Positions 8,424 to 23,542 of a stretch of DNA of 64,000 bases are shown here, in pieces. The notes beneath the pieces are model-generated. The model searched no databases. It saw only the letters and a list, made by a program, of their open reading frames with translations, and had not been told where the DNA came from. Origin of the DNA: a virus; IMG/VR virus record IMGVR_UViG_3300045136_000892. One strand, 5' to 3'. Within the stretch, counting starts at the first letter, position 1, and every line of letters starts with the position of its first letter. The translations under genes and the position numbers were made by a program.

Positions 8424-8499
8424 TGGAGCGGGGTGCCGGATTCGAACCGAGCTCCTCCAGCTTGGAAGGCTGGCGTGCAACCGTCAGCACTTACCCCGC
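8424..8499 (-). tRNA. tRNA-Gly(TCC), atypical (A8/U14, bulged T-stem)
   Basis: GCGGGGT/ACCCCGC acceptor, U73, encoded CCA, CCAGC-CTTCCAA-GCTGG anticodon arm, TTCGAAT loop. Confidence 0.8.
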
Positions 8500-8710: not shown

Positions 8711-11700
8711 ATGTCCTTCGCCAGCCGCTTTCCCCCCAAAGATCGCCCGGCCTCCTTCGTGGAGCGCGTCCGGCCCGCTCGCGGCCAGGCCTCGCTCTCT
8801 TTCGCCGAACCCCCTCCCCATACCGTCCATACCTCCCCGCCGGGTCCTTCCTCCGCGAAGGTACAGCCGCAGTCGGCCGGCTCAAGCCCGAACGGGTCCC
8901 CCAACCCCATTACGGGCGTTGACCCGTCCGCCCTGGCGTCTGTGGATCGCTCCGACGTCAGGCCCCCGCTCGCGGGGCCTCCAACGTCCCAAGGAGGTTC
9001 CATGGACAATCCACTCTCTACCGGCGAGAAGGCCAAGGCCCGCGACATCCTCGCCGCCATTCGTGCCCTCAAGACCATCGAGCGGGAGCACCGCCCCCCG
9101 ACCGACGACGAGATGCAGGCCCTCTGCCGCTTCGGCGGCTTCGGCCCCGTCGCCCTCTCCATCTTCCCCGACCCGGTCACCGGCCGGTTCAAGGACGGCT
9201 GGCAGGAGATCGGCCAGGAGCTTCAGAGGCTCCTGACCCCCGAGGAATACGACTCCGCCAAGCGGACGACCTTCTCCCAGTTCTTCACCTCCCCCGTCGT
9301 CATGCGGGCCATGCACGAGGCCCTTTCGCGTCTGGGAGTCCCCGATAACGCCCTGGTCCTCGAACCGGGATGTGGCACCGGCAATTTCATGGCCCTCGCC
9401 CCCGCGAGCCAGCGGTTCATCGGCGTGGAGCTTGACTCCCTCACCGGCCGCATCGCCCGCGCGCTCAACCCGCAGGCCGACATCCGCATCGAGAACTTCC
9501 GCGATACCCGGCTCCCCCCGCTCGACGCGGTGATCGGCAACGTGCCCTTCGCCAACGTCCATCTCGACTTCCACGGCCAGAAGCTCTCCCTCCACGATTT
9601 CTGCATCGCCAAGTCGGTCGAGGGCCTGAAGCCGGGCGGCGTCCTCGCCGTGGTCACCAGCCATTTCACGCTCGACAAGCAGAACGCGGCCGTCCGCGAG
9701 CTGCTCGCCAGCCAGGCCGACTTCCTCGGGGCCATCCGCCTGCCCAACGACGCGTTCAAGCGGGAGGGCACGGCGGTCACCACCGACATCCTCTTCTTGC
9801 GGAAACGGGCCCCCGGGCAGGCGCCGAACCACGCCGACCCCGAATGGCTGGAGACCTCCGAGATCGGCATCGCGGGGGCCGACCTGCCGGTCAACCGTTA
9901 CTTCCTGAACCACCACGAGATGGTGCTGGGCGACTGGAGCCGGGAGCACCTGCTCCACGGCGCCGTGGGCTTCAGCGTGATCAGCAACGGCGACCTGGCC
10001 ACCCAGCTCAGGGAGGCCGTCGCCCGGCTGCCGCAGGTGAAGCAGTCCGAGGCGGAGCGGCCTAATCCGCCGCCCGCTGTGGCCGACATTAATCTCGGTC
10101 GCAAACCTGAAACGCCTCCTTTCGTCCCGCCCCCGCCGCTCCGGCACATCACCGAAGGCAGCCTGTTCATCGACGACGAGCGGGTTATCCGCCAGGTCGA
10201 GAACGGAAACGCAGAGCCCGTCACCTATTGCGGCGTCCTGCTTAAGGCCAATGGCACGCCCCAGGGCCGCAAGATCGGCTCGCTGATCGAGCTCCGCGAC
10301 CTCGCCCGCCGCGTTCTCCAATCCCAGAACGAGGGCTGGCCCGAGGCGAACCGCCAGGAGGCCCGCCGCGACCTGAACCGGGCCTATGACCGCTTCGTCG
10401 CCGCCTACGGCCCGGTCAACAAGACCACGTTCACGGAGACCAGGACCGGCACCATCCGCCGGATGCCCAACCTGGTCAAGTTCCGGGAAGACCCGGACGC
10501 CATGCTGGTCATGTCGCTGGAAGAGTACGACGAGGCCACCGGCCGGGCGGAGAAGGCCGCCATCATGAAGAAGGACGTGGTCGGGCCCAAGCCGCCCGTC
10601 ACCCGCGTAACTTCCGCCGAGGAGGGCCTGCTGGTCTCGCTGAATGACCACGGGTGTGTCGACCTGCCGTACATCGCTCAGTTGTACGGAAAGCCCGTAC
10701 AACTCATCATCGCCGAGCTGGGCGATCTGATCTTCGAAAACCCGGAGACCAGGAAGTTCGAAGTTGCCGACGACTACCTCTCCGGCAACGTCCGCGCGAA
10801 GCTGGCCGCCGCCGAGAAGGCCGGGCCGGAGTATGCCCGCAACGCCGTGGCCCTGCGATCAGTCCAGCCGGAGGACGTCCTCCCCGGCGACATCGACGCG
10901 AACCTTGGCGCTCCGTGGATTCCCGAGAAGGACATCAAGGCGTTCGCGGAGGAGCTCTTCGGCGGCTCGTTCAACGTCGGCCATCTGAAGAAGGATGCCG
11001 TCTGGAGCCTGGAGCCCGACTACCGGGCCATCCAGTCGGTCGCGGCGACCGCCGACTTCGGGACGGGCCGGATCAACGGCACGGAGCTGCTCGCCCAGGC
11101 CCTGAACCTGAAATCCCCGGTCATCTACGACACGATCCGGGGCGTCAACGGCGACGAGAGGGTCCTGAACCCGACAGAAACCCAGGCCGCCAAGGAGAAG
11201 CAGAAGCTCATCAAGGAGCGGTTCAAGGCGTGGGTCTTCTCCGACCCCGACCGCACCGAGCGGCTCGTCCGGATGTACAACGACACCTACAACAATCTTC
11301 GTCCCCGACTCTTTGACGGGTCGCACCTAGACTTCCCGGGGATGAGCCGGGCCATTTCGCTGAACCCGCACCAGAAGGACGCGGTCTGGCGGTGCATGAC
11401 GGCCGGGAACACGCTGCTGGCGCATTGCGTCGGGGCCGGGAAGACCTTCGAGATGGCCGCGGCCGCGATGAAGATGCGGCAGGCCGGGCTGGTCAAGAAG
11501 CCCATGATCGTGGTGCCGAACCACATGCTGGAGCAGTTCGGCCGCGAGTTCATGCAGCTCTACCCGAACGCCAAGCTGCTGATCGCCACGAAAGACGACT
11601 TCACGAAGGAACGCCGCAAGTTCCTGACCGCCAAGATCGCCACCGGCGACTGGGACGCCGTCATCACGACGCATTCGAGCTTCGAGCGTATAGGCATGAG

Positions 11701-14065
11701 CCGCGAATACCAGGAGCGGTTCCTGCGCGAACAGATCGCAGAATACGAGGCCCTGTTGGTCGACAAGGCCTCTCACGGCCGCAACATCATCAAGACGCTG
11801 GAGAAGCAGAAGGCGAACCGGGAGGAGCGGCTGAAGCACCTGCTGGCCGAGGACAAGAAGGACGACGGGCTGGTCTTCGACGAACTGGGCGTCGACCACC
11901 TCTTCGTCGACGAGGCGCACTACTTCAAGAACCTCGAGACTCCCACGAAGATGGAGCGTGTGGCAGGCATCCAGACCGGCGGCAGCGAGCGGGCGTTCGA
12001 CCTTTTCATGAAAGCCCGCTTTCTGGACGAGAAGCATCCCGGCCACGGGGTCACCTTCGCCACGGGCACCCCTATCAGCAACACGATGGTCGAGATGTAC
12101 ACGATGCAGCGGTTCCTCGACCCCGAGGGGCTGCGCTCACGTGGCATCGAGCACTTCGACGCCTGGGCGGCCACCTTCGGCGAGGTGGTCGACTCCATGG
12201 AGATCTCGCCAGACGGCGCCAGCCTGCGGCCTCGCAGCCGCTTCGCCAAGTTCGTGAACCTGCCCGAGCTGGTCCAGATGTTCCGGGCCTTCGCCGACGT
12301 GCAGACGGCGGAGATGCTCGACCTGCCCAGACCGAAGCTGGAGGGCGGCAAGCCCCAGACGGTGGCCTGCCCGATGTCGGATGACCAGAGGGAACTACAA
12401 GCCGGGCTCATCAAGCGGTATGACCGCATCCGCAACGAGAAGGTGGACCCCCGCGAGGACAACGCGCTGGCGATCACCACGGACGGCCGCAAGCTGGCCC
12501 TCGACGGGCGGATGCTCGGCGCCGGGGGCGACTTCCCCGGCTCAAAGATCAACGCCCTGGTCGGCAACGTCGTCCGGATATGGAGGCAGACCGAGGCGAA
12601 GCGCGGCACGCAGATGATCTTCTGCGACATGGGCGTCCACCCGAATCCGTTCTCGGTTTATGACGAAATCGTGGAGAAACTGGCCGACCACGGCCTCCCC
12701 CGCAGCCAGATCGCCGTCATGGGCGATGCCGACACCGACGCCAAGAAGCAGGCGCTGTTCGAGAAGGTGCGCCAAGGGACGGTGCGCGTCCTGCTGGGCA
12801 GTACGTCCAAGATGGGCACGGGCACCAACGTCCAGAAGCGGCTGGTGGCCATGCACCACCTCGACGCCCCATGGAAGCCCGCCGAGGTCGAGCAGCGCGA
12901 CGGCCGAATCCTCCGTCAGGGTAACGAGAACGCCGAGGTGGCGATCTTCCGCTACGTCACCGAGGGCTCGTTCGACGCCTACATGTGGCAAGCGCTGGAG
13001 ACCAAGGCCCGATTCATCGCCCAGGTGATGAGCGGCGACTGCGCTGTCCGTAAGGCCGAGGATATCGGCGGACAGGAACTCAGCTACGCCGAGGTGAAGG
13101 CCATCGCGTCCGGTAACCCCGCCGTGCTGACGCTGGCCGAGGCCGATGCAGAGCTGCAGCGGCTGGCCATCCTGCGGAAGAACCACCTGGACGAGCAGTA
13201 TCTGGCGAAGCGGAACCTCCGCGACCTCCCCGACGACATCCGGCGGCTGGAGAAGCGGCTGGACGGGCTGACGGCCGATATGGCGACGCTCGCGGCGAAC
13301 GATTTCATCCCCTCACAGGAGGCAATCGCCGAGCGCATGAAGCGCATGCCGGAGAAGGTGAGCGAAACCTACCGCACGCCGCTGGGGAGATACCGCGGAC
13401 TGGAAGCCAGCCTGATCCTGCACCCGCTGGGCGGGACGGAGGTCGTGCTGGACGGGGCGACCCGCCGGCGCGAGACGCTCATGCGCGATAACCCCGGCCC
13501 ACGTGCCGTGCTCAACGCCTTGGAGCGACTGGCGAACAGCTACGACTACGAGTGCCGGAGCCACCGGGCGGAGATCGGCGTGAAACAGGGGCAGCTCAAG
13601 GACTACGAGGCCCGCCTGGGCAAGCCGTTCGCCCACAGCGAGTTCATGGCCCGGCTGGCCGACCTGCGTGACCAGCTCAAGGAGGGGCTCTCGGAGAAGG
13701 CTCAGCAGGAGCCGAAGCCCGAGGGGCCGACCGTCGCGGAACTGGCCGAGAAGATTAAGACGTTGAGGGAGGCCAACACCGTAGAATCCGCGCCGGAGCG
13801 GGCGATCAGGAAGGCCGCGCGGGCTGAAAGGCCGGTCACGGCGAGGATTCGCTCGAAGCTGGGCGAGCAGTTGGCGGCGAAGGCAGAGGAAACCACAGGG
13901 CTCACGGCAACCAGCACGACGATCGAGGAGAAGCCTGAGGAGTCGCCGGCAGCCCCGACCGCGACGGTGATACTGATGCCGGACCTGTCAAAACCCGTGA
14001 ATGGCCATGCGAAGGCGGTTGAGAACCGCCGTCAGGCAAAGGCGGAGCAGCTACGGCTGTTCTGA
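8711..14065 (+). CDS. DarB-like adenine methyltransferase-SF2 helicase fusion
   Basis: LEPGCGTG, IGNVPF (MTase); AHCVGAGKT, DEAH, TGTPISN, GTNVQ, QRDGRILRQGN (helicase); alternative start 9002 with GGAGG RBS. Confidence 0.9.
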   Translation: MSFASRFPPKDRPASFVERVRPARGQASLSFAEPPPHTVHTSPPGPSSAKVQPQSAGSSPNGSPNPITGVDPSALASVDRSDVRPPLAGPPTSQGGSMDNPLSTGEKAKARDILAAIRALKTIEREHRPPTDDEMQALCRFGGFGPVALSIFPDPVTGRFKDGWQEIGQELQRLLTPEEYDSAKRTTFSQFFTSPVVMRAMHEALSRLGVPDNALVLEPGCGTGNFMALAPASQRFIGVELDSLTGRIARALNPQADIRIENFRDTRLPPLDAVIGNVPFANVHLDFHGQKLSLHDFCIAKSVEGLKPGGVLAVVTSHFTLDKQNAAVRELLASQADFLGAIRLPNDAFKREGTAVTTDILFLRKRAPGQAPNHADPEWLETSEIGIAGADLPVNRYFLNHHEMVLGDWSREHLLHGAVGFSVISNGDLATQLREAVARLPQVKQSEAERPNPPPAVADINLGRKPETPPFVPPPPLRHITEGSLFIDDERVIRQVENGNAEPVTYCGVLLKANGTPQGRKIGSLIELRDLARRVLQSQNEGWPEANRQEARRDLNRAYDRFVAAYGPVNKTTFTETRTGTIRRMPNLVKFREDPDAMLVMSLEEYDEATGRAEKAAIMKKDVVGPKPPVTRVTSAEEGLLVSLNDHGCVDLPYIAQLYGKPVQLIIAELGDLIFENPETRKFEVADDYLSGNVRAKLAAAEKAGPEYARNAVALRSVQPEDVLPGDIDANLGAPWIPEKDIKAFAEELFGGSFNVGHLKKDAVWSLEPDYRAIQSVAATADFGTGRINGTELLAQALNLKSPVIYDTIRGVNGDERVLNPTETQAAKEKQKLIKERFKAWVFSDPDRTERLVRMYNDTYNNLRPRLFDGSHLDFPGMSRAISLNPHQKDAVWRCMTAGNTLLAHCVGAGKTFEMAAAAMKMRQAGLVKKPMIVVPNHMLEQFGREFMQLYPNAKLLIATKDDFTKERRKFLTAKIATGDWDAVITTHSSFERIGMSREYQERFLREQIAEYEALLVDKASHGRNIIKTLEKQKANREERLKHLLAEDKKDDGLVFDELGVDHLFVDEAHYFKNLETPTKMERVAGIQTGGSERAFDLFMKARFLDEKHPGHGVTFATGTPISNTMVEMYTMQRFLDPEGLRSRGIEHFDAWAATFGEVVDSMEISPDGASLRPRSRFAKFVNLPELVQMFRAFADVQTAEMLDLPRPKLEGGKPQTVACPMSDDQRELQAGLIKRYDRIRNEKVDPREDNALAITTDGRKLALDGRMLGAGGDFPGSKINALVGNVVRIWRQTEAKRGTQMIFCDMGVHPNPFSVYDEIVEKLADHGLPRSQIAVMGDADTDAKKQALFEKVRQGTVRVLLGSTSKMGTGTNVQKRLVAMHHLDAPWKPAEVEQRDGRILRQGNENAEVAIFRYVTEGSFDAYMWQALETKARFIAQVMSGDCAVRKAEDIGGQELSYAEVKAIASGNPAVLTLAEADAELQRLAILRKNHLDEQYLAKRNLRDLPDDIRRLEKRLDGLTADMATLAANDFIPSQEAIAERMKRMPEKVSETYRTPLGRYRGLEASLILHPLGGTEVVLDGATRRRETLMRDNPGPRAVLNALERLANSYDYECRSHRAEIGVKQGQLKDYEARLGKPFAHSEFMARLADLRDQLKEGLSEKAQQEPKPEGPTVAELAEKIKTLREANTVESAPERAIRKAARAERPVTARIRSKLGEQLAAKAEETTGLTATSTTIEEKPEESPAAPTATVILMPDLSKPVNGHAKAVENRRQAKAEQLRLF

Positions 14066-14620
14066 CTGGCTTGCGGGGAGGATGTCCTGGAGTCGGCAGC
14101 CATCCGATGTCGACTCCGGGATGCCCACGGCGATCAGTCGCTCGCGAACCGTCCGGAGTTCCGGTTCGGTGTTGGCCAGGAAGAGGAATGGAGCGTGGGA
14201 GCGATAGTAAAACGAGGGAATTCCCTGCGTGCTCAAGTACGCCCGCTTCGATTCCCGTTGGGCTTCGGCATCAAGCTCGTGACGCCAGTCGTTCCCTTGG
14301 TCAAAGCAGACCATGTAGGCTGGTCGAAGCCGCCTGAGCTCTCTCACGATGAAGGCGAGTGGGGCGTGCTCGATTGTCGCTTCGATCATCTTGTGCTCGG
14401 GGACAGGTATCCCGGTGTGGGGATCGAGCAGCAGGCCGAAGCGTGCGGCTGGTGGTGACGCGGGATCGTAGATCGGCATCGAAATCAGCAGGGAGTACCT
14501 TGCACGGAGATCCTTTGGAATAAAGCGGTCGTGAGCCATTAACGGGGCGATCACCGAAAGCGAGTCGGCCCAGAACCGCTTCACCAAATCGAAGGAGTCG
14601 CCGAGGTACTTCTCGCGCAC
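14051..14620 (-). CDS. Hypothetical protein, last gene of RNA-repair operon
   Basis: 189-aa ORF 9 bp after the HTH gene. Confidence 0.65.
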   Translation of the reverse strand: MREKYLGDSFDLVKRFWADSLSVIAPLMAHDRFIPKDLRARYSLLISMPIYDPASPPAARFGLLLDPHTGIPVPEHKMIEATIEHAPLAFIVRELRRLRPAYMVCFDQGNDWRHELDAEAQRESKRAYLSTQGIPSFYYRSHAPFLFLANTEPELRTVRERLIAVGIPESTSDGCRLQDILPASQSEQP

Positions 14621-14629
14621 CGGCCCACC

Positions 14630-14851
14630 TCAGATACGAGATCGGCGTCGTCTCGCTCGTCCAACAGCCAAGCTCTCGACCACCTTGGTGATGGCCAGCT
14701 CATCCGCCCGGCTGATCTTCGACTTCCCAGACAGTTTACGCCGAATCGTCGACGGGTCACAGCCGAGCAGACGGGCGAGCCTGGTCTGTCCTCCCGTGTT
14801 TCGATCGTCGTTCAGGACGTTGCAGATCGCCCGCAGCTCAACAGGGGTCAT
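14630..14851 (-). CDS. Small HTH DNA-binding protein
   Basis: GQTRLARLLGCDPSTIRRKLSG helix-turn-helix; ATGA coupling to HD gene. Confidence 0.75.
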   Translation of the reverse strand: MTPVELRAICNVLNDDRNTGGQTRLARLLGCDPSTIRRKLSGKSKISRADELAITKVVESLAVGRARRRRSRI

Positions 14852-15393
14852 GCCTTCCCCCGCTCCAAACTCGCGTGGATGAGCTTCAATTGCGCTGCTT
14901 GCAGCGTTGAGTAGGCACGTTCCCAAAGCTCGGTATTACCGTGTTTAAGCACTCCGAGTAGCGCTTCTTTCTCGCGCAAATAGGCCTTGGCAAAAGCCTT
15001 ATCGTGCTCCACGATGGACCCCGTGTTGTCGATCAGGTCGGCCAGCTTGATCGTAGCGCCGTCCGGCGACGATCGGGCCAGATGTTCCCTATCCAGCCGC
15101 TTCCTCACCTCGCGGCTCCCATCCTCAAGCCGGGACACATCGGTCACCTCGATCACGAGCAGAGTCACCCTTTCGCCGAAGACGTCCTGAAGCTCGGCCG
15201 GCGTCACTTCTGTGTCCTCCAGCACGTCGTGCAGAGCGGCGGCAGCGATCACGGCAGGGTAACTGATGTACTCGGCAACGATGGAGGCGACGTTCCGGCA
15301 GTGGTTGGCATACGGCTCGCCGGTGTATTTCCGCTTCTGCTGCCGATGGGCACACTTGGCGAAGCCGAGGGCCAGAGTCGGCAGGTCTGTCAT
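14848..15393 (-). CDS. HD-domain RelA/SpoT-type small alarmone hydrolase (Mesh1/SAH-like)
   Basis: AHRQQKRKYTGEPYANH, AAALHDVLEDT, IKLADLIDN; ATGA coupling to rtcB. Confidence 0.85.
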   Translation of the reverse strand: MTDLPTLALGFAKCAHRQQKRKYTGEPYANHCRNVASIVAEYISYPAVIAAAALHDVLEDTEVTPAELQDVFGERVTLLVIEVTDVSRLEDGSREVRKRLDREHLARSSPDGATIKLADLIDNTGSIVEHDKAFAKAYLREKEALLGVLKHGNTELWERAYSTLQAAQLKLIHASLERGKA

Positions 15394-16631
15394 CCCTTCA
15401 CGCATAGCACCTGCTTCAGCTCATAAGCGATTTCCACCAGATCCTGCTGCGCCGCCATGACCGCATCGATCGGCTTGTAGGCCGCCGGGCTCTCGTCCAG
15501 GACCCCTTCGTCCTTTCGGCACTCGACACCAGCAGTCGCCTTTGCGTGGTCTTCGAGGCTGACGCGTTTGCTGGCCTCGCCCCGGCTCATCACCCGTCCG
15601 GCGCCGTGCGAGCAGCTGCAGAATGATTCCTGGTTGCCCTTGCCCCGCACGATGAACGACCGGGCACCCATCGAGCCGGGGATGATCCCCAGATCGCCTT
15701 GGCGGGCACGGACGGCCCCCTTGCGGGTGAGCCAGACGTTCTTGCCATAGTGCTGCTCGCGGGCCACGTAGTTGTGGTGGCAGTTCACCGCAACCTCGTC
15801 CGGGCGGCCGACCCGGCCGGGGAAGTGCCGCTCCAGCACCCTGAGCACCGCCCGCATCATCACCTCGCGGTTCGCCCGGGCGAAGTCCTGCGCCCAGGTC
15901 AGGGCCTCGACGTAGTCGTCGAAAAGGTCTGACCCTTCCGGAATGTAGGCCAGGTCGGCGTCCGGCAGGTTGACGAACCAGCGGCGCATCTCCGCCTTGG
16001 CCCGCTCGATGAAGTAAATGCCGAACTTGTTCCCGATGCCCCGACTGCCGGAGTGGAGCATCACCCAGATAGCCCCGTCGGTGTCGAGGCACAGCTCGAT
16101 GAAGTGGTTTCCGGTGCCGAGCGTGCCGAGGTGGTGCGGAGCGCGTGTTGCGGACCGGGCCAGGTCGGGGTGCTTGGCGACGATGGCTTCGAGGCGTTCC
16201 TGAAGCGACGGCCCGAAGGCATCACTCTTGAACGCCCACGCGGATTCGTCCGGCAGATCGCCCCAAGCCCCACGATCGCTCGCCCCGCCGTTGTCGGTGC
16301 GACCGTGCGGCACCGCCGCCTCGATGTCGGAGCGGATCTCGAACAGGTTGTCGGGCAGGTCCTCAGCCCGAAGTCCGGTCCGAACGGCCATCATGCCGCA
16401 ACCGATATCCACGCCCACAGCCGCCGGAATGATCGCCCCGACTGTGGGGATGACCGAGCCGACGGTGGCCCCCATGCCCCAGTGGACGTCAGGCATGACC
16501 GCGACATGGTGATGGATGAAGGGCATCCGGGCGACGTTGCGGAGCTGGTCGACGGCTTTCTGGTCGAGAGGTACGCCTTCGGTCCAGCCGTAGATCGGAA
16601 CGGCTTCCTTGCCGAGGAACTGCCTACTCAT
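15390..16631 (-). CDS. rtcB: RNA 3'-phosphate/5'-OH ligase RtcB
   Basis: MPDVHWG, VGVDIGCG, LGTGNHF, HSGSRG, HHNY, RKGA, PGSMG, SHGAGR, DESPAAYK. Confidence 0.95.
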   Translation of the reverse strand: MSRQFLGKEAVPIYGWTEGVPLDQKAVDQLRNVARMPFIHHHVAVMPDVHWGMGATVGSVIPTVGAIIPAAVGVDIGCGMMAVRTGLRAEDLPDNLFEIRSDIEAAVPHGRTDNGGASDRGAWGDLPDESAWAFKSDAFGPSLQERLEAIVAKHPDLARSATRAPHHLGTLGTGNHFIELCLDTDGAIWVMLHSGSRGIGNKFGIYFIERAKAEMRRWFVNLPDADLAYIPEGSDLFDDYVEALTWAQDFARANREVMMRAVLRVLERHFPGRVGRPDEVAVNCHHNYVAREQHYGKNVWLTRKGAVRARQGDLGIIPGSMGARSFIVRGKGNQESFCSCSHGAGRVMSRGEASKRVSLEDHAKATAGVECRKDEGVLDESPAAYKPIDAVMAAQQDLVEIAYELKQVLCVKG

Positions 16632-17922
16632 TGGCAGATTCAAACTTCACGATGTAGTCGAGGACCTTGTTCGACCAGCCGTCGATGTGGACCCACTGGC
16701 CGTAGCCGACGCCATTCTTGTTGCTCGCGACGTTGATCAGGTAGCCCTTCATCTGCGGTACCGGGTCGTGGCTCTGCTCGTCGGTGATGACGATCAGCCG
16801 ATCCCGAGCCGGCAGCGAGCGGACCGCCTTACCCAGTTCCGTCCCGCCGTGCGGCTGAGCACCAGTGATCGCATCCCGAAGGGCAAACCCACGCCGTCCC
16901 GGCACCTCGACCAGGCTGTTGGAGAAGGTGAAGACCCGCAGGTCGGAAAACATCTCCCGGCCGATCATCGCCAGCGAGCAGGCCACATCCATCCGGTTCA
17001 GCTCGGACTTGGAGGACAGCGCGGAGTCCATCGATCCCGACACGTCCACCAGGATGATCGTCTTGCCGCCCAGCTTCTCGCGGCCCGCGAAGCACTCGAA
17101 GAACTTGGCCTCCAGCTCAGGCTCGAACTGGGGGTTGTGCCGCGCCGAGGCGATGAAGTTGATCGGTAGGAGTCGACCGGCCTTCACGTCGCGCAGGCCT
17201 TCGCGGATCGCCTGGTCCTCCACGCCCGCCTTCGTCATATTGCGGACGTTGCGGAGCATGGCGAGTCCGCCAAGCTTGCCCTCGGAGAGTAGACGAGACC
17301 ACGAGGCCTTCTTGTCACCACCCTTCGACAGCTCGACCTCCCAGGTATCCGGAGTAGCCAGCTCGCCTTTGACGAGCTTGCGCCAAAGCTCGGCCTGTTC
17401 GAGATTGGCCGGCTTGGGGCGGGTGATCCGCAGGGCGTCGCGCAGTTTGACCGCCTTCTGACCTCCGTTGTACTTGGCTAGCTGGTACTCGTCGAACTTG
17501 CGGAAGGAGTCGCCCAGGCCGCGCTTGACCTGCTTGGCCAGCGGTTCGTCCTTGTTAGCCTTCCAATAGATTGACAGGAACTCGGTGATATCGTCCGGGC
17601 GGAGGATGACGCGGGGAAAGAGCCCCTTGGCCTGCGCACGGCCTTCCTTGGTCCGCATCAGCTCACGGGCGAGCAGGAGCGGGACGTGGCGGAGGCGCAT
17701 GTCCTCCTTCGCCTGGACGGCGACGCGGGCGACATCCTCGGCAGGCACGAGCTTCACCAGCTCGGCGATCCGCTGGCCGATGGTCTGGCCGTCCTCGTAG
17801 AACTCCGACTCCCAGAGCAGGCAGGACATGACGGAGCGTTCGAGTTGAGCGAGCGCGTTGATACGGGCAGCCGGAGCGCCTTCGTGGGTGAACTCCTTGC
17901 GGATTCGGTTCAGGGTAGCCAT
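16624..17922 (-). CDS. rsr: TROVE/vWA protein, Ro60 (Rsr) orthologue
   Basis: FYEDG, LAKY, TWEVELS, AMLRNVRN, MIDAS DVSGSM, GGT, IVITDEQ; next to rtcB and Y-like RNAs. Confidence 0.9.
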   Translation of the reverse strand: MATLNRIRKEFTHEGAPAARINALAQLERSVMSCLLWESEFYEDGQTIGQRIAELVKLVPAEDVARVAVQAKEDMRLRHVPLLLARELMRTKEGRAQAKGLFPRVILRPDDITEFLSIYWKANKDEPLAKQVKRGLGDSFRKFDEYQLAKYNGGQKAVKLRDALRITRPKPANLEQAELWRKLVKGELATPDTWEVELSKGGDKKASWSRLLSEGKLGGLAMLRNVRNMTKAGVEDQAIREGLRDVKAGRLLPINFIASARHNPQFEPELEAKFFECFAGREKLGGKTIILVDVSGSMDSALSSKSELNRMDVACSLAMIGREMFSDLRVFTFSNSLVEVPGRRGFALRDAITGAQPHGGTELGKAVRSLPARDRLIVITDEQSHDPVPQMKGYLINVASNKNGVGYGQWVHIDGWSNKVLDYIVKFESANE

Positions 17923-17943
17923 GACACACCTACTTTCAATTGC

Positions 17944-18070
17944 GGGCGGGGAAGATTCGGAGAGGGACGAAACTGAGCTACTGAACCTTGCGGCCCAGGC
18001 GGGGATCGAACCCGCGACCTCCGGCGAACCGGCGCTCTATCCAAAGTATCCCTGTCCTGCACCACCGCCC
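17944..18070 (-). ncRNA. Y-RNA-like (YrlA-type) unit 1; tRNA module opened in the D-loop, anticodon loop replaced by UUCG
   Basis: GGGCGGTGGTGCAG..GGGATACTT | TGGATAGAGC, CCGG-TTCG-CCGG, T arm, CTGGGCC-GCAA-GGTTCAG, TAGCTCAGT | ..TCTTCCCCGCCC. Confidence 0.8.
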
Positions 18071-18082
18071 TGTTGCGGAAAC

Positions 18083-18212
18083 CGTGCGGGGAAGAAACGA
18101 CAAAGGTACAAAGCGTCCTAACCATTAGACGACGGCCCCGAAGGACCGGCGGGATTCGAACCCGCATCTCTCTCGTGGAAAGAGAAGTAACCCTTGCCTG
18201 CACCACCGCACG
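18083..18212 (-). ncRNA. Y-RNA-like unit 2; permuted tRNA with TCC anticodon loop
   Basis: Same terminal stem; CTC-TTTCCAC-GAGAG, T arm, CGGTCC-TTCG-GGGCCG, D arm GTCTAATGGTTAGGAC. Confidence 0.8.
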
Positions 18213-18223
18213 ATGGTTCAAGA

Positions 18224-18357
18224 GGAGGGGGAAGAGACGATAAAGGCACGTACGTGCTCTACCAGCTGAGCTACCGGCAGGTCGATCTGCCGGACGGGAC
18301 TCGAACCCGCGACCACGCGATTACAAGTCGAAGTAACCCTTATCTGCACCACCCTCC
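18224..18357 (-). ncRNA. Y-RNA-like unit 3; permuted tRNA with TGT (Thr) anticodon loop
   Basis: Same terminal stem; CGA-CTTGTAA-TCGCG, T arm, CCGGCAG-ATCGAC-CTGCCGG, TAGCTCAGCTGGTAGAGC. Confidence 0.8.
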
Positions 18358-18366
18358 AAAACTTAA

Positions 18367-18428
18367 GAGCCGGGAAGATCGTCGAAGGTTCGCTTTCCAA
18401 TAAGTAGCCCTCGACTGCACCACGGCCC
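18367..18428 (-). ncRNA. Minimal Y-RNA-like unit 4 (stem only, no tRNA module)
   Basis: GGGCCGTGGTGCAGTCGAGGGCTACTT-short loop-ACCTTCGACGATCTTCCCGGCTC. Confidence 0.7.
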
Positions 18429-18438
18429 GATGCAAATC

Positions 18439-18467
18439 ACCCTAGTGCAGGTTGCACGCAAGCGCAA
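18439..18467 (-). promoter_or_regulatory. Putative sigma70 promoter with palindromic operator for the Y-RNA/rsr/rtcB operon
   Basis: TTGCGC-N17-TAGGGT; GTGCA-N3-TGCAC (18445-18457) within the spacer. Confidence 0.45.
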
Positions 18468-18579
18468 GCATTATTTTAATCGTCATTCAACCTCTTTGAT
18501 TCCCGGCTATTGCGGCCTCGCGGGGGCTTGTTAAAATGGGCAATCTCGCGGCTGATTCCCGCTACCTGACGAGGTCGCC

Positions 18580-19113: not shown

Positions 19114-19671
19114 ATGCCAGAAGCACCACACGTACCAACCCTGACCGACCTCGCGCTCCTCCCTCGGTGGGCGAAGGTTCTGTTCCTTTCGAGGTGTGCC
19201 GCCAGGGTCATCCCTCTCATCCGTACTCAATGGCCCAGTTTGTCGGCCGGGGACTTGATGGTCATCGGGATGGCTGGGGCGAACGCGGATGCGTCGGCGC
19301 GGCTCGGACGAGAGGTTCACGTTGGGGCGGACCCGCTACCACGGTTGATGGAACTTATCGAGAGTGCCGAGCAGCAGGACAATATGGCTGGCTATGGCTT
19401 GGCGGTATGCGCTACAGCAGCTGGGCTGGCACAGGCCGAATCCGCCGAAAAGGCCACCAACCTTGCTGGTGCAGCACTTGAGCACATGATTCAGTCTTAT
19501 GCTGTCAGCGGGCTAAACGAGGGCGCCGTTGTCGGGTCTGTATGGCTCGATTACAAGGCCCTCCGGGACGCCGCACAAGCGGGCAGTTGGAACAACGAAA
19601 CCCGGATGACCGACGGCATCCTCGGCGAGCTTTGGCCGCATGGCACCCCTCCGGGCTGGCCCACCGAATAA
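19114..19671 (+). CDS. Hypothetical protein
   Basis: GGAG RBS, 185-aa helical ORF ending GELWPHGTPPGWP. Confidence 0.65.
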   Translation: MPEAPHVPTLTDLALLPRWAKVLFLSRCAARVIPLIRTQWPSLSAGDLMVIGMAGANADASARLGREVHVGADPLPRLMELIESAEQQDNMAGYGLAVCATAAGLAQAESAEKATNLAGAALEHMIQSYAVSGLNEGAVVGSVWLDYKALRDAAQAGSWNNETRMTDGILGELWPHGTPPGWPTE

Positions 19672-19744
19672 AGCTAAAATCGACCTGGTGTACATCGCGT
19701 ACGTTTCGCTGGTCATGAGCCTGCGAACGGCGTATCCTCGCCGC

Positions 19745-20380
19745 ATGAAACGCCTTACCCTCATCCTCCTCATCCTCGCGGTCTGGCCGTTCCCGACCGT
19801 CGCCGCCGATTTCGCGGCCTGGGTCATTGGCGTCTCCGACGGCGACACGCTGACTGTCCTGACCGCCGAGAAGCGGCAGGTCAAGGTTCGGCTGCACGGC
19901 ATCGACGCACCGGAGACGGGGCAGGACTTTGGCACGCGCGCGAAGCAGGCGGCTTCGGAGCTGGCCTTCGGCAAGCAGGTAACCGTCCGGGAGGTGGACA
20001 GGGACCGCTATGGGCGCACCGTGGCCGAGGTAATCCTGCCGGATGGCCGTTCGCTCAATCGCGAGATGGTGCGCGGCGGGATGGCTTGGTGGCACAGGAC
20101 CTATGCGCCGGCCGACCGCGAGCTGGCCTCGCTGGAAGCCGAGGCTAAGGCCACGAAGCGCGGCCTGTGGGCCCAGCCCGGGGCCATCCCGCCGTGGGAA
20201 TGGAGGAGTAGCAAGGGCGACCCCGTCACGGCGGAGGTCGTGGGGAACCGCCGGAGCATGATCTACCACGCACTGAACTGCCGGGGCGCAACCGCAATCA
20301 GCGAGAAGAACCGGGTGGCGTTCAAGACTGCGGCCGAGGCCGAGGCTGCGGGCTACCGGAAGGCGAGGGATTGCAAATAG
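19745..20380 (+). CDS. Secreted thermonuclease (SNase) with C-terminal Ada-like metal-binding domain
   Basis: Signal peptide; SDGDT, VRLHGIDAPE, DRYGR, KRGLW; IYHALNC..AEAAGYR. Confidence 0.9.
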   Translation: MKRLTLILLILAVWPFPTVAADFAAWVIGVSDGDTLTVLTAEKRQVKVRLHGIDAPETGQDFGTRAKQAASELAFGKQVTVREVDRDRYGRTVAEVILPDGRSLNREMVRGGMAWWHRTYAPADRELASLEAEAKATKRGLWAQPGAIPPWEWRSSKGDPVTAEVVGNRRSMIYHALNCRGATAISEKNRVAFKTAAEAEAAGYRKARDCK

Positions 20381-21260: not shown

Positions 21261-21468
21261 CGGGGCGGGGTTGCGGCCAAGTGGGCGGGGGCGAGCGGCG
21301 GGGGAAGCTGTGCGCGTGGAAGTGGGTGGAGGGGGCGGGGAGAGGTATGGGGTGGGGAAGTGAAGGGCGGATATTTTTAAAATATTTCAACACCATAGCG
21401 AGTTTCTAGCGCTATGCTTAAAAATCAGTTGCTTAACATTCCGAAGACGACTACTTTATCCTTAGGCG

Positions 21469-21558
21469 TGCCCGTGATCGGACTCGAACCAACATACCCG
21501 CGTGAGCTAAGGTGCCAGGATGACAGCCTGGTGCGTCTACCAATTCCGCCACACGGGC
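21469..21558 (-). tRNA. Class II tRNA with Leu-type body and Asp (GTC) anticodon; no encoded CCA
   Basis: GCCCGTG TG GCG GAATTGGTAGA CGC A CCAGG CTGTCAT CCTGG, long variable arm, GTTGG TTCGAGT CCGAT CACGGGC A. Confidence 0.75.
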
Positions 21559-22291: not shown

Positions 22292-22470
22292 CCCCGAGGC
22301 GGCATGTGTCGCCTTGGGGCTTGATAACCCCTTGGTTAGCGGTTTTGTACAGCCGTGATTTGTACTCCTCGCTTACGGCGGGGAGGCGTGCGCGCATGTT
22401 CAGGCGCGAGCTAAAGGCGCACGCGACCTTCTAACCAAGGTTTATCAACTCCCCGTCACCAGTGGGGATT
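22292..22470 (+). ncRNA. Structured leader resembling phage c4/CI-type antisense-controlled leaders
   Basis: Hairpin 22292-22319; TTGATAACCCCTTGGTTAG (22321) complementary to CTAACCAAGGTTTATCAA (22431); second partial target GGGGATTGTTAT over the start codon. Confidence 0.5.
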
Positions 22471-22585: not shown

Positions 22586-23542
22586 TCAAGCCACCATCCA
22601 CCTCTGGCTATACCCCTTCCACTGCCGCGACACAGGCGCAGCCAGGGCGGCGCCCACCAGCATCAGATACTGCTCGCCATTGCTCACCCGGCGGTTATCC
22701 TCGCGCCATGCCATCTCCGCGGCGTACAGGCCGAGATACGGCCCTGCAATGTGGTGATGCGTGCCGACCTCGGCCCGGCGCAGGCGGCTGAAATAGCTCT
22801 CTGCTTGATTGGTGCAGGCTCCGTTCTCGCTATAGGCCCATTTGTGGTTCACCCGCTTCGTCAGATATTTCGCGTGCAGCGCATCCCAAGCGGGCGCTTC
22901 ATCGGCGTGGATCACCGAGCCAGCGGCCACATGCTTCTGCACCAGGGGCACGGCCTCATCCTCCGAGCGGAACACGAAGGGTAGCGTCCGGCCCTTGCGC
23001 TCGCGCATGACGACGACGACCTGGCGCTTGCCCGTTTGGTTTGCCGCCAGGCGGCGGTCCTTGCGGTCTTCCTTGCGGTTCTCCGGCTTCACATGCCCGC
23101 CGAAATAGCCGCCGTCCACCTCGACCTCCCCCGATAGCTGACACTCGGCACGCATCGCCTCGCGGAGTTTGTGGGAGAGCACGAAGGCAGTCCGGTACTG
23201 GACGCCCAGGTCGCGGGATAGCTGCAGGGCGCTAATGCCCTTGGCCGCGTTCGTGAACAGGGCGATGGCCACCAGGATCTCGCGGATCGCCAGCTTGCGG
23301 GAGGCGAAGATCGTCCCCGAGGTCACGCTGAACTGGTGGCTGCATGCCTTGCACTTCCAGAGCGCCCGCGTCGTGTAGGTGTAGAGGGCGGCGCAGCGGC
23401 AGCGGGGGCAGTAGGGCTTGCCGCCCGTATCGGCCCAGCGGATGGCCTGGAACGCCTCGGCGGCCTGCTCGTCCGTCATGGCCATGATCGCCCTCAGAGA
23501 GAGGGACCGGGCGGCGGAGGAGAGGAGGAAGTGCTGGGTCAT
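22586..23542 (-). mobile_element. IS1595-family transposase
   Basis: Zn ribbon CPRC..CKAC..FSVTSGTIF; VEVDGGYFGG, HADE, VNH, TNQAESYFSRLRR. Confidence 0.92.

Follow-up and report, generated by a model that had tools for sequence, protein, structure and literature searches.

Y RNAs of the YrlA kind adjoin rsr, the gene for Ro60, in more than 250 bacteria and phages, and they share a conserved YUAY motif and a stem-loop of low conservation, on the 5' side of the T arm, that has been drawn as a variable arm (Chen et al. 2014, PMC4201824). In M. smegmatis, YrlA is cleaved by RNase P and CCA is added to it (PMC4201824). The crystal-structure paper presents YrlA without an anticodon loop and cites a model in which the RNA arose from dimeric transfer RNA (tRNA) transcripts (Wang et al. 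2018, 10.1101/312249). Halves of tRNAs induce the Salmonella rsr-yrlBA-rtcBA operon, and it has been suggested that YrlA might inhibit, by competition, the anticodon nuclease by which this operon is triggered (Hughes et al. 2020, PMC7790460). No paper describing an anticodon arm in YrlA was found, though reviews may mention it. The "variable arm" of Chen et al. is read here as positions 29-41 of an anticodon arm. The locus under study is an array of four Y-RNA-like units in a 64,000-nucleotide (nt) stretch, the window, of virus record IMGVR_UViG_3300045136_000892, which is 142,954 bp in full. Two of the units hold a complete tRNA in permuted order, together with an anticodon-type hairpin. The four are probably Y RNAs of the YrlA and YrlB kind, and the likeliest mechanism is that of full tRNA mimics tethered to Ro60, with the anticodon arm as a selected contact surface.

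A shared handle with exchangeable cargoes

The array runs on the minus strand from 18428 to 17944 and lies directly upstream of the genes for Ro60, RtcB and an HD-domain protein, with a gap of 21 nt between its end and the Ro60 ATG at 17922. A preliminary description of the window had claimed four minus-strand units with a constant scaffold ahead of Ro60, and the pattern search bears this out. The 5' pattern GTGGTGCAG-N4-GGGNTACTT has four copies on the minus strand, with 5' motifs starting at 18423, 18352, 18206 and 18065; none is expected from 100 shuffles of the window, and the full record holds no further copy. TCTTCCC lies 3' of every copy. The flanks of each unit pair into an outer stem whose sequence differs between units, and the variable N4 bases pair with the bases preceding TCTTCCC to form an inner stem. 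The conserved 5' motif of this handle is GUGGUGCAG, and its conserved internal loop sets 5' U-GG-UGCA opposite 3' UCUU-CC. The inner stem terminates in a YUAY motif (UUAC) followed by UU; the motif reads UUAC, UUAC, AUAC and CUAC in the individual units, and T26, C28, T29 and T30 around it show no variation among 28 relatives.

The cargo carried by the handle differs from unit to unit. In units 2 and 3 (u2, u3) it is a cloverleaf opened between positions 28 and 29, with the stems and loops that the preliminary description had assigned to it. ARAGORN calls no tRNA in the native array sequence; once the cargoes are re-joined at the acceptor-sealing loop and between 28 and 29, it calls tRNA-Gly(tcc) in u2 and tRNA-Thr(tgt) in u3, both with 5-bp anticodon stems, 7-nt loops and normal D and T arms. 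The halves stand in permuted order and the acceptor is sealed, so there are no free ends as in a tRNA gene: the acceptor stem of u3 has 7 bp closed by a 6-nt loop, and that of u2 has 6 bp sealed by UUCG. The D arm of u2 resembles that of host tRNA-Glu. Unit 1 (u1) carries its handle within the D loop of a tRNA-like body that is not called as tRNA. Its anticodon loop is replaced by a UUCG-capped stem and its acceptor is capped by GCAA, as read from the sequence, and its T stem shows compensatory changes relative to Tundrisphaera. Units u1-u3 all run from the T arm through the closed acceptor stem-loop to the D arm, and unit 4 (u4) lacks this tRNA-like domain. Single-sequence folding gives a z-score of -4.3 for u2 and just -1.1 for u1, and the minimum free energy fold of u3 misses the T arm. 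The RNA structure rests on comparative evidence.

Unit 4 has an outer stem GGGCCG/CGGCTC and about 23 nt between the handle halves, in agreement with the earlier statement that it is without cargo. It is intact in Tundrisphaera, and its 5' half has decayed in the Singulisphaera relatives. At two Singulisphaera loci (L088 and L091, about 2520-2580) the orthologue has lost the 5' motif and keeps a recognisable 3' half; the handle-only unit is decaying in this genus.

The closest described relative is YrlA (Rfam RF02553, gathering score 69 bits), known from S. Typhimurium, M. smegmatis and mycobacteriophages. As in YrlA, the units are encoded beside rsr on the same strand, a T arm is followed by a loop-closed acceptor and a D arm, both the D arm and the T arm are conserved, YUAY is present and a long stem carries the presumed Ro60 site; the Salmonella operon likewise includes rtcB. 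Alignment with the Rfam model takes in the T arm, the closed acceptor and the D arm in u3 (a partial match of 43.1 bits at 18253-18317), u2 (27.1 bits at 18115-18168) and u1 (20.3 bits). The preliminary description had proposed this model as a check, and the alignment of the three arms stands, whereas scores of 20-43 bits stay short of the cut-off. The units differ from YrlA in two further respects: the array handle has GUGGUGNAG and UCUUCC where YrlA has GNCGAA, and a 3-bp/7-nt hairpin stands where the printed Rfam consensus has a continuous helix. The existing model lacks the anticodon-type hairpin. As first proposed, the units can be regarded as predicted genes for Y-like RNAs of the YrlA kind, next to a TROVE/Ro60 gene.

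Other Y RNAs share parts of this design. YrlB of S. Typhimurium is a short second Y RNA next to YrlA that consists of a Ro60 module without a tRNA-like domain, as does u4; the two offer no sequence similarity to compare and are likened by layout, and YrlB orthologues are known in S. enterica only. Yrn1 of D. radiodurans has been drawn with a possible anticodon arm on a 5-bp stem, but its loop has 6 nt, its arms follow another order and a full D arm is lacking, and it is considered a separate lineage. The best solved relative of the window Ro60 is that of Thermus phage phiLo (9L5Y/9KOP; E 1.4e-23 over residues 12-426), which binds Yrl1 and Yrl2, encoded upstream (PMC12135203). Yrl1 and Yrl2 were chosen for their CGAA motif, and a tRNA-like part is unmentioned (PMC12135203).

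The anticodon-type hairpin across the family

The comparison set comprised 160 loci encoding relatives of the window Ro60, 80 on viral contigs and 80 in genomes. A parser requiring the motif and an outer stem found, after removal of redundancy, 321 handle units in 119 of the 160 loci, usually in arrays of one to eight. The family spreads over Planctomycetota, Acidobacteriota and Firmicutes, and it extends to cultured phages of Caulobacter and Xanthomonas: seven units lie upstream of the Ro60 gene in Caulobacter phage CcrColossus, and five are present in Xanthomonas phage Sopo. Across four planctomycete genomes (7.8-10.8 Mb), the handle pattern has 15 matches, all of them in tight tandem clusters, and its reversed control has no match; in the three planctomycete genomes with known Ro60 coordinates, the matches lie only at the Ro60 locus.

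About 60 of the 321 units bear a hairpin of 3 bp and 7 nt with the anticodon-loop signature Y32, U33, R37 and A38. Other architectures have no hairpin, like Salmonella YrlA, or a GNRA-capped hairpin at the 3' side, and among the short units about a dozen retain just the hairpin and have no tRNA elbow. A handle placed within the D loop, like that of u1, recurs at eight further loci, nine in all, one of them with a full 7-nt loop. Firmicute units laid out like those of the array align over the full length of the Rfam YrlA model, at 36-51 bits. At the position orthologous to u2, four different cargoes occur among six close relatives on a nearly identical handle, which supports the modularity first claimed for the array.

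The register of the hairpin is that of a tRNA. Among 42 units picked solely for a T arm and a 20-nt prefix, the register of 3 bp, 7-nt loop, 3 bp, 2 nt and 5-nt variable loop forms all three pairs in 33, against 1-5 for other registers. In 61 units with a prefix of 19-20 nt, C or T stands at position 32 in 50, T at position 33 in 46, a purine at position 37 in 55 and A at position 38 in 50; the whole signature is present in 29 units, against 0.76 expected from composition. Furthermore, positions 42-43 pair with 27-28 in 46 of 52 fully parsed units, both pairs being formed.

Covariation points the same way. In an alignment of 28 related units, whose rows were chosen by a parser that itself demanded the hairpin as well as T, acceptor and D stems, pairing holds in 93.5% of cells, compared with about 45% when the partners are slid; 32 of 40 pairs change on both sides, and the covariation score is 0.607 against 0.18 in shuffles. 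The compensatory stem changes claimed from the window are thus found in its relatives. The 27-28/42-43 helix, which was not a selection criterion, is 100% paired in these rows, with AU, CG and GC types. RNAalifold recovers unaided the outer stem, the inner stem, the anticodon-type hairpin and the T, acceptor and D helices; it did not recover the 2-bp 27-28/42-43 helix.

As a usual rule of three-way junctions, helices without a linker between them stack. The hairpin directly abuts the 42-43 strand, and because no nucleotide separates the two, hairpin and 27-28/42-43 helix should stack as an anticodon arm from which the handle branches. The hairpin appears, in its geometry, to be an anticodon arm. 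Selection appears to keep the shape of the loop, since signature and stem pairing are retained while the triplets vary. The expectation that anticodon loops would be conserved in homologous arrays therefore held for the loop signature and the pairing, and failed for the triplets.

This conservation bears on an explanation that would grant the hairpin no ligand of its own, in which it is the remnant of an ancestral tRNA or tRNA dimer and at most a buttress of the junction. Repeated loss of the hairpin, which is absent from the Salmonella YrlA crystal construct (10.1101/312249), fits a remnant, as do triplets that drift and can be unnatural, and under the dimeric-tRNA origin model (10.1101/312249) an anticodon arm would be expected on the 5' side of the T arm. 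A mere remnant would sit poorly with the presence of Y32, U33, R37 and A38 in 75-90% of units though Ro60 is just 30-55% identical to the window's, with stem pairing that survives through double changes, and with the short units that retain the hairpin without an elbow. The explanation is improbable on this evidence.

Variable triplets and competing explanations

The triplets vary, although the loop shape is kept. Among 60 units there are 43 different loops. The commonest is CTGTTAA (9), from which 31 loops differ by no more than two changes. G34-U35 occurs in 17 of the 60. A34 occurs in six, five of which read ATT, ATG or AAG, which are not normally bacterial anticodons. The bodies are all of class I, units with Ser, Leu and Tyr triplets included. 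One orthologous series, from the planctomycete relatives of the window, gives the divergence. At the u3 position the triplets are TGT, ATT, GTT and GTC, and stem and loop change together: CGA-CTTGTAA-TCG in the window and Tundrisphaera, AGG-CT(A/G)TTAA-CCT in two Singulisphaera and ACC-TTGTCAC-GGT in S. acidiphila. Six of 13 hairpin positions differ between u3 orthologues, against 3 of 121 elsewhere (p ~2e-5), and the stem changes are compensated. The u2 position in another relative shows the triplet GTA. A hot spot whose stems are compensated points to something beyond drift, and the unnatural triplets speak against a faithful copy of real tRNAs; the triplet may be either drifting freely or driven to change.

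The preliminary description had gone further and suggested that the hairpins display particular anticodons as bait, decoy or sensor for anticodon-loop nucleases, coupled to repair by RtcB; in its full form this reading has the set diversified by an arms race and the cut RNAs resealed by RtcB. The divergence hot spot and the 43 loops, G34-U35 among them, are what such a race would leave. The proposal also accords with the competitive inhibition suggested for YrlA's tRNA-like domain (PMC7790460), with the fusion of rtcB to the array operon and with the many relatives' Ro60 genes that sit within phage tRNA arrays. Display of specific anticodons is nevertheless hard to reconcile with triplets that change between orthologues and include ATT, ATG and AAG, with class I bodies whatever the triplet, with stems that do not copy the cognate host tRNA, and with the many loops one or two changes from CTGTTAA, as expected for drift from one ancestor. 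Salmonella YrlA is reported as a non-substrate of the nuclease (PMC7790460). Nor does RtcB travel with the hairpin: it lies within 3 kb of Ro60 in 10 of the 160 loci, in 3 of 46 hairpin-bearing loci and 5 of 73 others. The bait model for specific anticodons is thus unlikely, and the coupling to RtcB that accompanied it is local to this operon and few others. A linkage to RtcB or to the HD gene (2 of 160 loci) was rejected as a family feature.

Two loci, in an uncultured proteobacterium (L113) and in Hyphomicrobiaceae (L129), have the Ro60 gene inside arrays of about 20 ordinary tRNA genes, like large phages. Genuine tRNA genes seem commoner near units that bear the hairpin, in 21 of 46 loci against 16 of 73, a count left unused as ARAGORN can call the units themselves.

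Comparison with host tRNAs covered 49 typed from Tundrisphaera and 11 from Singulisphaera. The anticodon stems are unlike those of cognate host tRNAs (CCGGT/ACCGA in host Thr(tgt), CGCGA/TCGCG in u3), and specific mimicry of host stems was rejected on that ground. No near-identical host tRNA for the u2 or u3 cargo was found in the two related genomes searched; the best sampled host tRNAs agree at about 77-84% of positions, a generic tRNA similarity. Recent capture of host tRNA genes was rejected, as those two genomes gave no close tRNA gene and the anticodon stems differ.

Circularly permuted tRNA genes are known from the red alga Cyanidioschyzon merolae and from some archaea. There, too, the 3' half precedes the 5' half, the flanks pair at the junction, and junctions in the D loop occur. 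Their products, in contrast, are mature, chargeable tRNAs made through a circular intermediate, whereas in the present units a loop, mostly a tetraloop, closes the acceptor end, and the helix at the flanks forms a conserved motif that is linked to Ro60. The units could in principle be precursors of working tRNAs: the handle would bring positions 28 and 29 together, a nuclease would excise it, RtcB would ligate the ends, and RNase P and 3' processing would open the acceptor loop. RtcB is a tRNA ligase encoded in the operon, u3 has a 7-bp acceptor stem closed by 6 nt, with an A following its 3' strand, and the M. smegmatis YrlA, RNase P-cut and CCA-tailed, offers a precedent (PMC4201824). Most acceptor stems are, however, closed by stable GNRA or UUCG tetraloops, and some have only 6 bp; class I bodies carry Ser, Leu and Tyr triplets, some triplets are unnatural, and the handle is conserved and tied to Ro60, not RtcB. 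The junction linkers (UU, a 3-nt linker) look unlike a bulge-helix-bulge by eye, and neither that motif nor a splicing endonuclease was noticed, with no search aimed at either. A precursor role is very improbable.

The preferred reading, tRNA mimics tethered to Ro60, leads to the following model. The four predicted Y RNAs would probably be cut from a single transcript with rsr and rtcB. The handle would be the Ro60-binding module, and the remainder of units 1-3 a tRNA-shaped module. In u2 and u3 the handle would exit the tRNA between 28 and 29, creating a three-way junction in which 27-28/42-43 stack on the 3-bp stem with its 7-nt loop, so that a whole anticodon arm is displayed with the handle off its side. 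Selection would preserve the geometry of the arm (Y32, U33, R37, A38, loop length and pairing) and leave the triplet free or push it to change. Most likely the RNAs act as look-alikes that engage proteins recognising the elbow and the anticodon arm; nucleases, modification enzymes and repair factors acting during tRNA damage are candidate partners. The RNAs would play no part in decoding.

Several observations weigh against this model. The handle is assigned to Ro60 binding from its position and by analogy, and the published contact motif, GNCGAA(N)G, is not in it; GTCGAG is present in unit 4 alone, within the variable inner stem. All Rfam YrlA matches in u3, u2 and u1 fall below the cut-off and cover model positions 23-88 only, and none of 20 related loci tested reaches the cut-off. 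Given how the covariation rows were chosen, the independent tests are the inner stem and the 27-28/42-43 helix. Finally, the hairpin is missing from the u2 orthologue of Tundrisphaera, the closest relative, from many family members and from S. Typhimurium YrlA (10.1101/312249). Because the loci score below the cut-off and the consensus has no hairpin, the array RNAs would appear to form a branch of YrlA outside the Rfam catalogue.

Genomic setting and meaning of the array

The features of the array and its operon are collected in Table 1. About 50 nt preceding unit 4 are identical in the window and Tundrisphaera, with divergence farther upstream, and this stretch may be the promoter region of array and operon. 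A promoter scan upstream of the array gave no match to the sigma-70 consensus, and no convincing sigma-54 site was seen there by eye.

Table 1. Coordinates of the array units, their hairpins and the neighbouring operon genes in the window
Feature	Coordinates	Strand	Description
Upstream conserved stretch	18429..18481	-	possible promoter region for array and operon; identity with Tundrisphaera
Unit 4 (u4)	18428-18367	-	62 nt; handle-only, YrlB-like, without tRNA cargo
Unit 3 (u3)	18357-18224	-	134 nt; handle and complete permuted tRNA
u3 anticodon-type hairpin	18330-18318	-	loop CTTGTAA; triplet 18325-18323
Unit 2 (u2)	18212-18083	-	130 nt; handle and complete permuted tRNA
u2 anticodon-type hairpin	18184-18172	-	loop TTTCCAC; triplet 18179-18177
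Unit 1 (u1)	18070-17944	-	127 nt; handle within D loop of tRNA-like body
Ro60/Rsr homologue	16624..17922	-	432 aa; Pfam TROVE E 4.7e-18, weak vWA_Ro60
RtcB RNA ligase	15390..16643	-	Pfam RtcB E 1.7e-132; start overlaps Ro60 stop
HD-domain (HD_4) protein	14848..15405	-	Pfam HD_4 E 1.9e-16; start overlaps RtcB stop
189-aa open reading frame	14051..14620	-	operon end, membership uncertain; no Pfam match

The closest Ro60 genes are chromosomal and lie in Planctomycetota, with identities to the window of 93% in Tundrisphaera lichenicola, 83-88% in Singulisphaera species and 78% in Zavarzinella. Zavarzinella formosa has three separate clusters of handle units (genome G004, contigs C6, C9 and C16), which suggests that it holds several Ro60/Y-RNA loci. 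The window and Tundrisphaera have two blocks in common, and the surrounding 80 kb is non-syntenic. The first block comprises promoter, array, Ro60 and RtcB (window 15394-18481, 85% nt identity); the HD gene is outside it and absent at the Tundrisphaera locus. In T. lichenicola this block ends right after rtcB, 11 nt before a tRNA-Arg(ccg) (G001:C1:6647539-6647612). The second block is the neighbouring SNF2-like helicase gene. This 1784-aa gene of the SNF2/ResIII type (8711-14065, plus strand) is convergent with the operon, shares 80% nt identity with Tundrisphaera near the RNA-repair block and has a 72% paralogue elsewhere in the record. A 71-nt "tRNA-Leu(cag)" called by ARAGORN inside its reading frame (11065-11135) has the look of a false positive.

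The record is listed by its source as a provirus, and no phage hallmark genes were found among the few window reading frames checked; the setting of the array is read here as a planctomycete island or mobile context. Other features of the window include an SNase-family nuclease fused to an Ada zinc-binding domain (19640-20380, plus strand) and an IS1595-type transposase (22586-23542, minus strand), which a weak sRNA-Xcc1 match adjoins (22377-22465, plus strand; 30 bits, cut-off 53). A 91-nt class II tRNA at 21468-21558 (minus strand) combines a Leu-like body and long variable arm with the loop CTGTCAT (GTC, Asp); it scores 53.7 bits with the Rfam tRNA model, and ARAGORN calls it tRNA-Asp(gtc). 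A tRNA-Gly(tcc) at 8424-8499 (minus strand) has its CCA end encoded and an anticodon arm unlike that of the Tundrisphaera and Singulisphaera tRNA-Gly(tcc), and it may belong to the island and not the core genome.

Units of this family can pass for tRNA genes. In CcrColossus, the RefSeq "tRNA-Gln" (NC_019406.1, 109217-109284; L255 673-740) coincides with the 5' half of a Y-like unit that contains the handle, the hairpin CGC-ATCTGGA-GCG and the T arm, and is probably a mis-annotation. A Y-like unit of the same kind at L142:2674-2741 exceeds the cut-off of the Rfam tRNA model. Such units thus pose an annotation problem, being called tRNA genes both by that model and in the RefSeq record.

The function of the tRNA-like half of bacterial Y RNAs has been a question since 2014, and the published picture is that of an elbow without an anticodon arm. 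The present comparison suggests a large branch, not yet catalogued, whose RNAs are complete tRNAs in permuted form, with an anticodon-type loop that keeps the tRNA signature while its middle three bases vary between units. A bolder and rather doubtful reading is that these arrays belong to a widespread bacterial and phage system that displays anticodon arms on a protein-bound handle, the loop being under diversifying selection because it serves to titrate or sense enzymes by which anticodon loops are read, or to absorb their attack. Such readers could be the anticodon nucleases of toxins and defence systems, or proteins that read a U33-G34-U35 motif, and in the present operon RtcB would reseal the bait. 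The findings also support the descent of Y RNAs from tRNAs.

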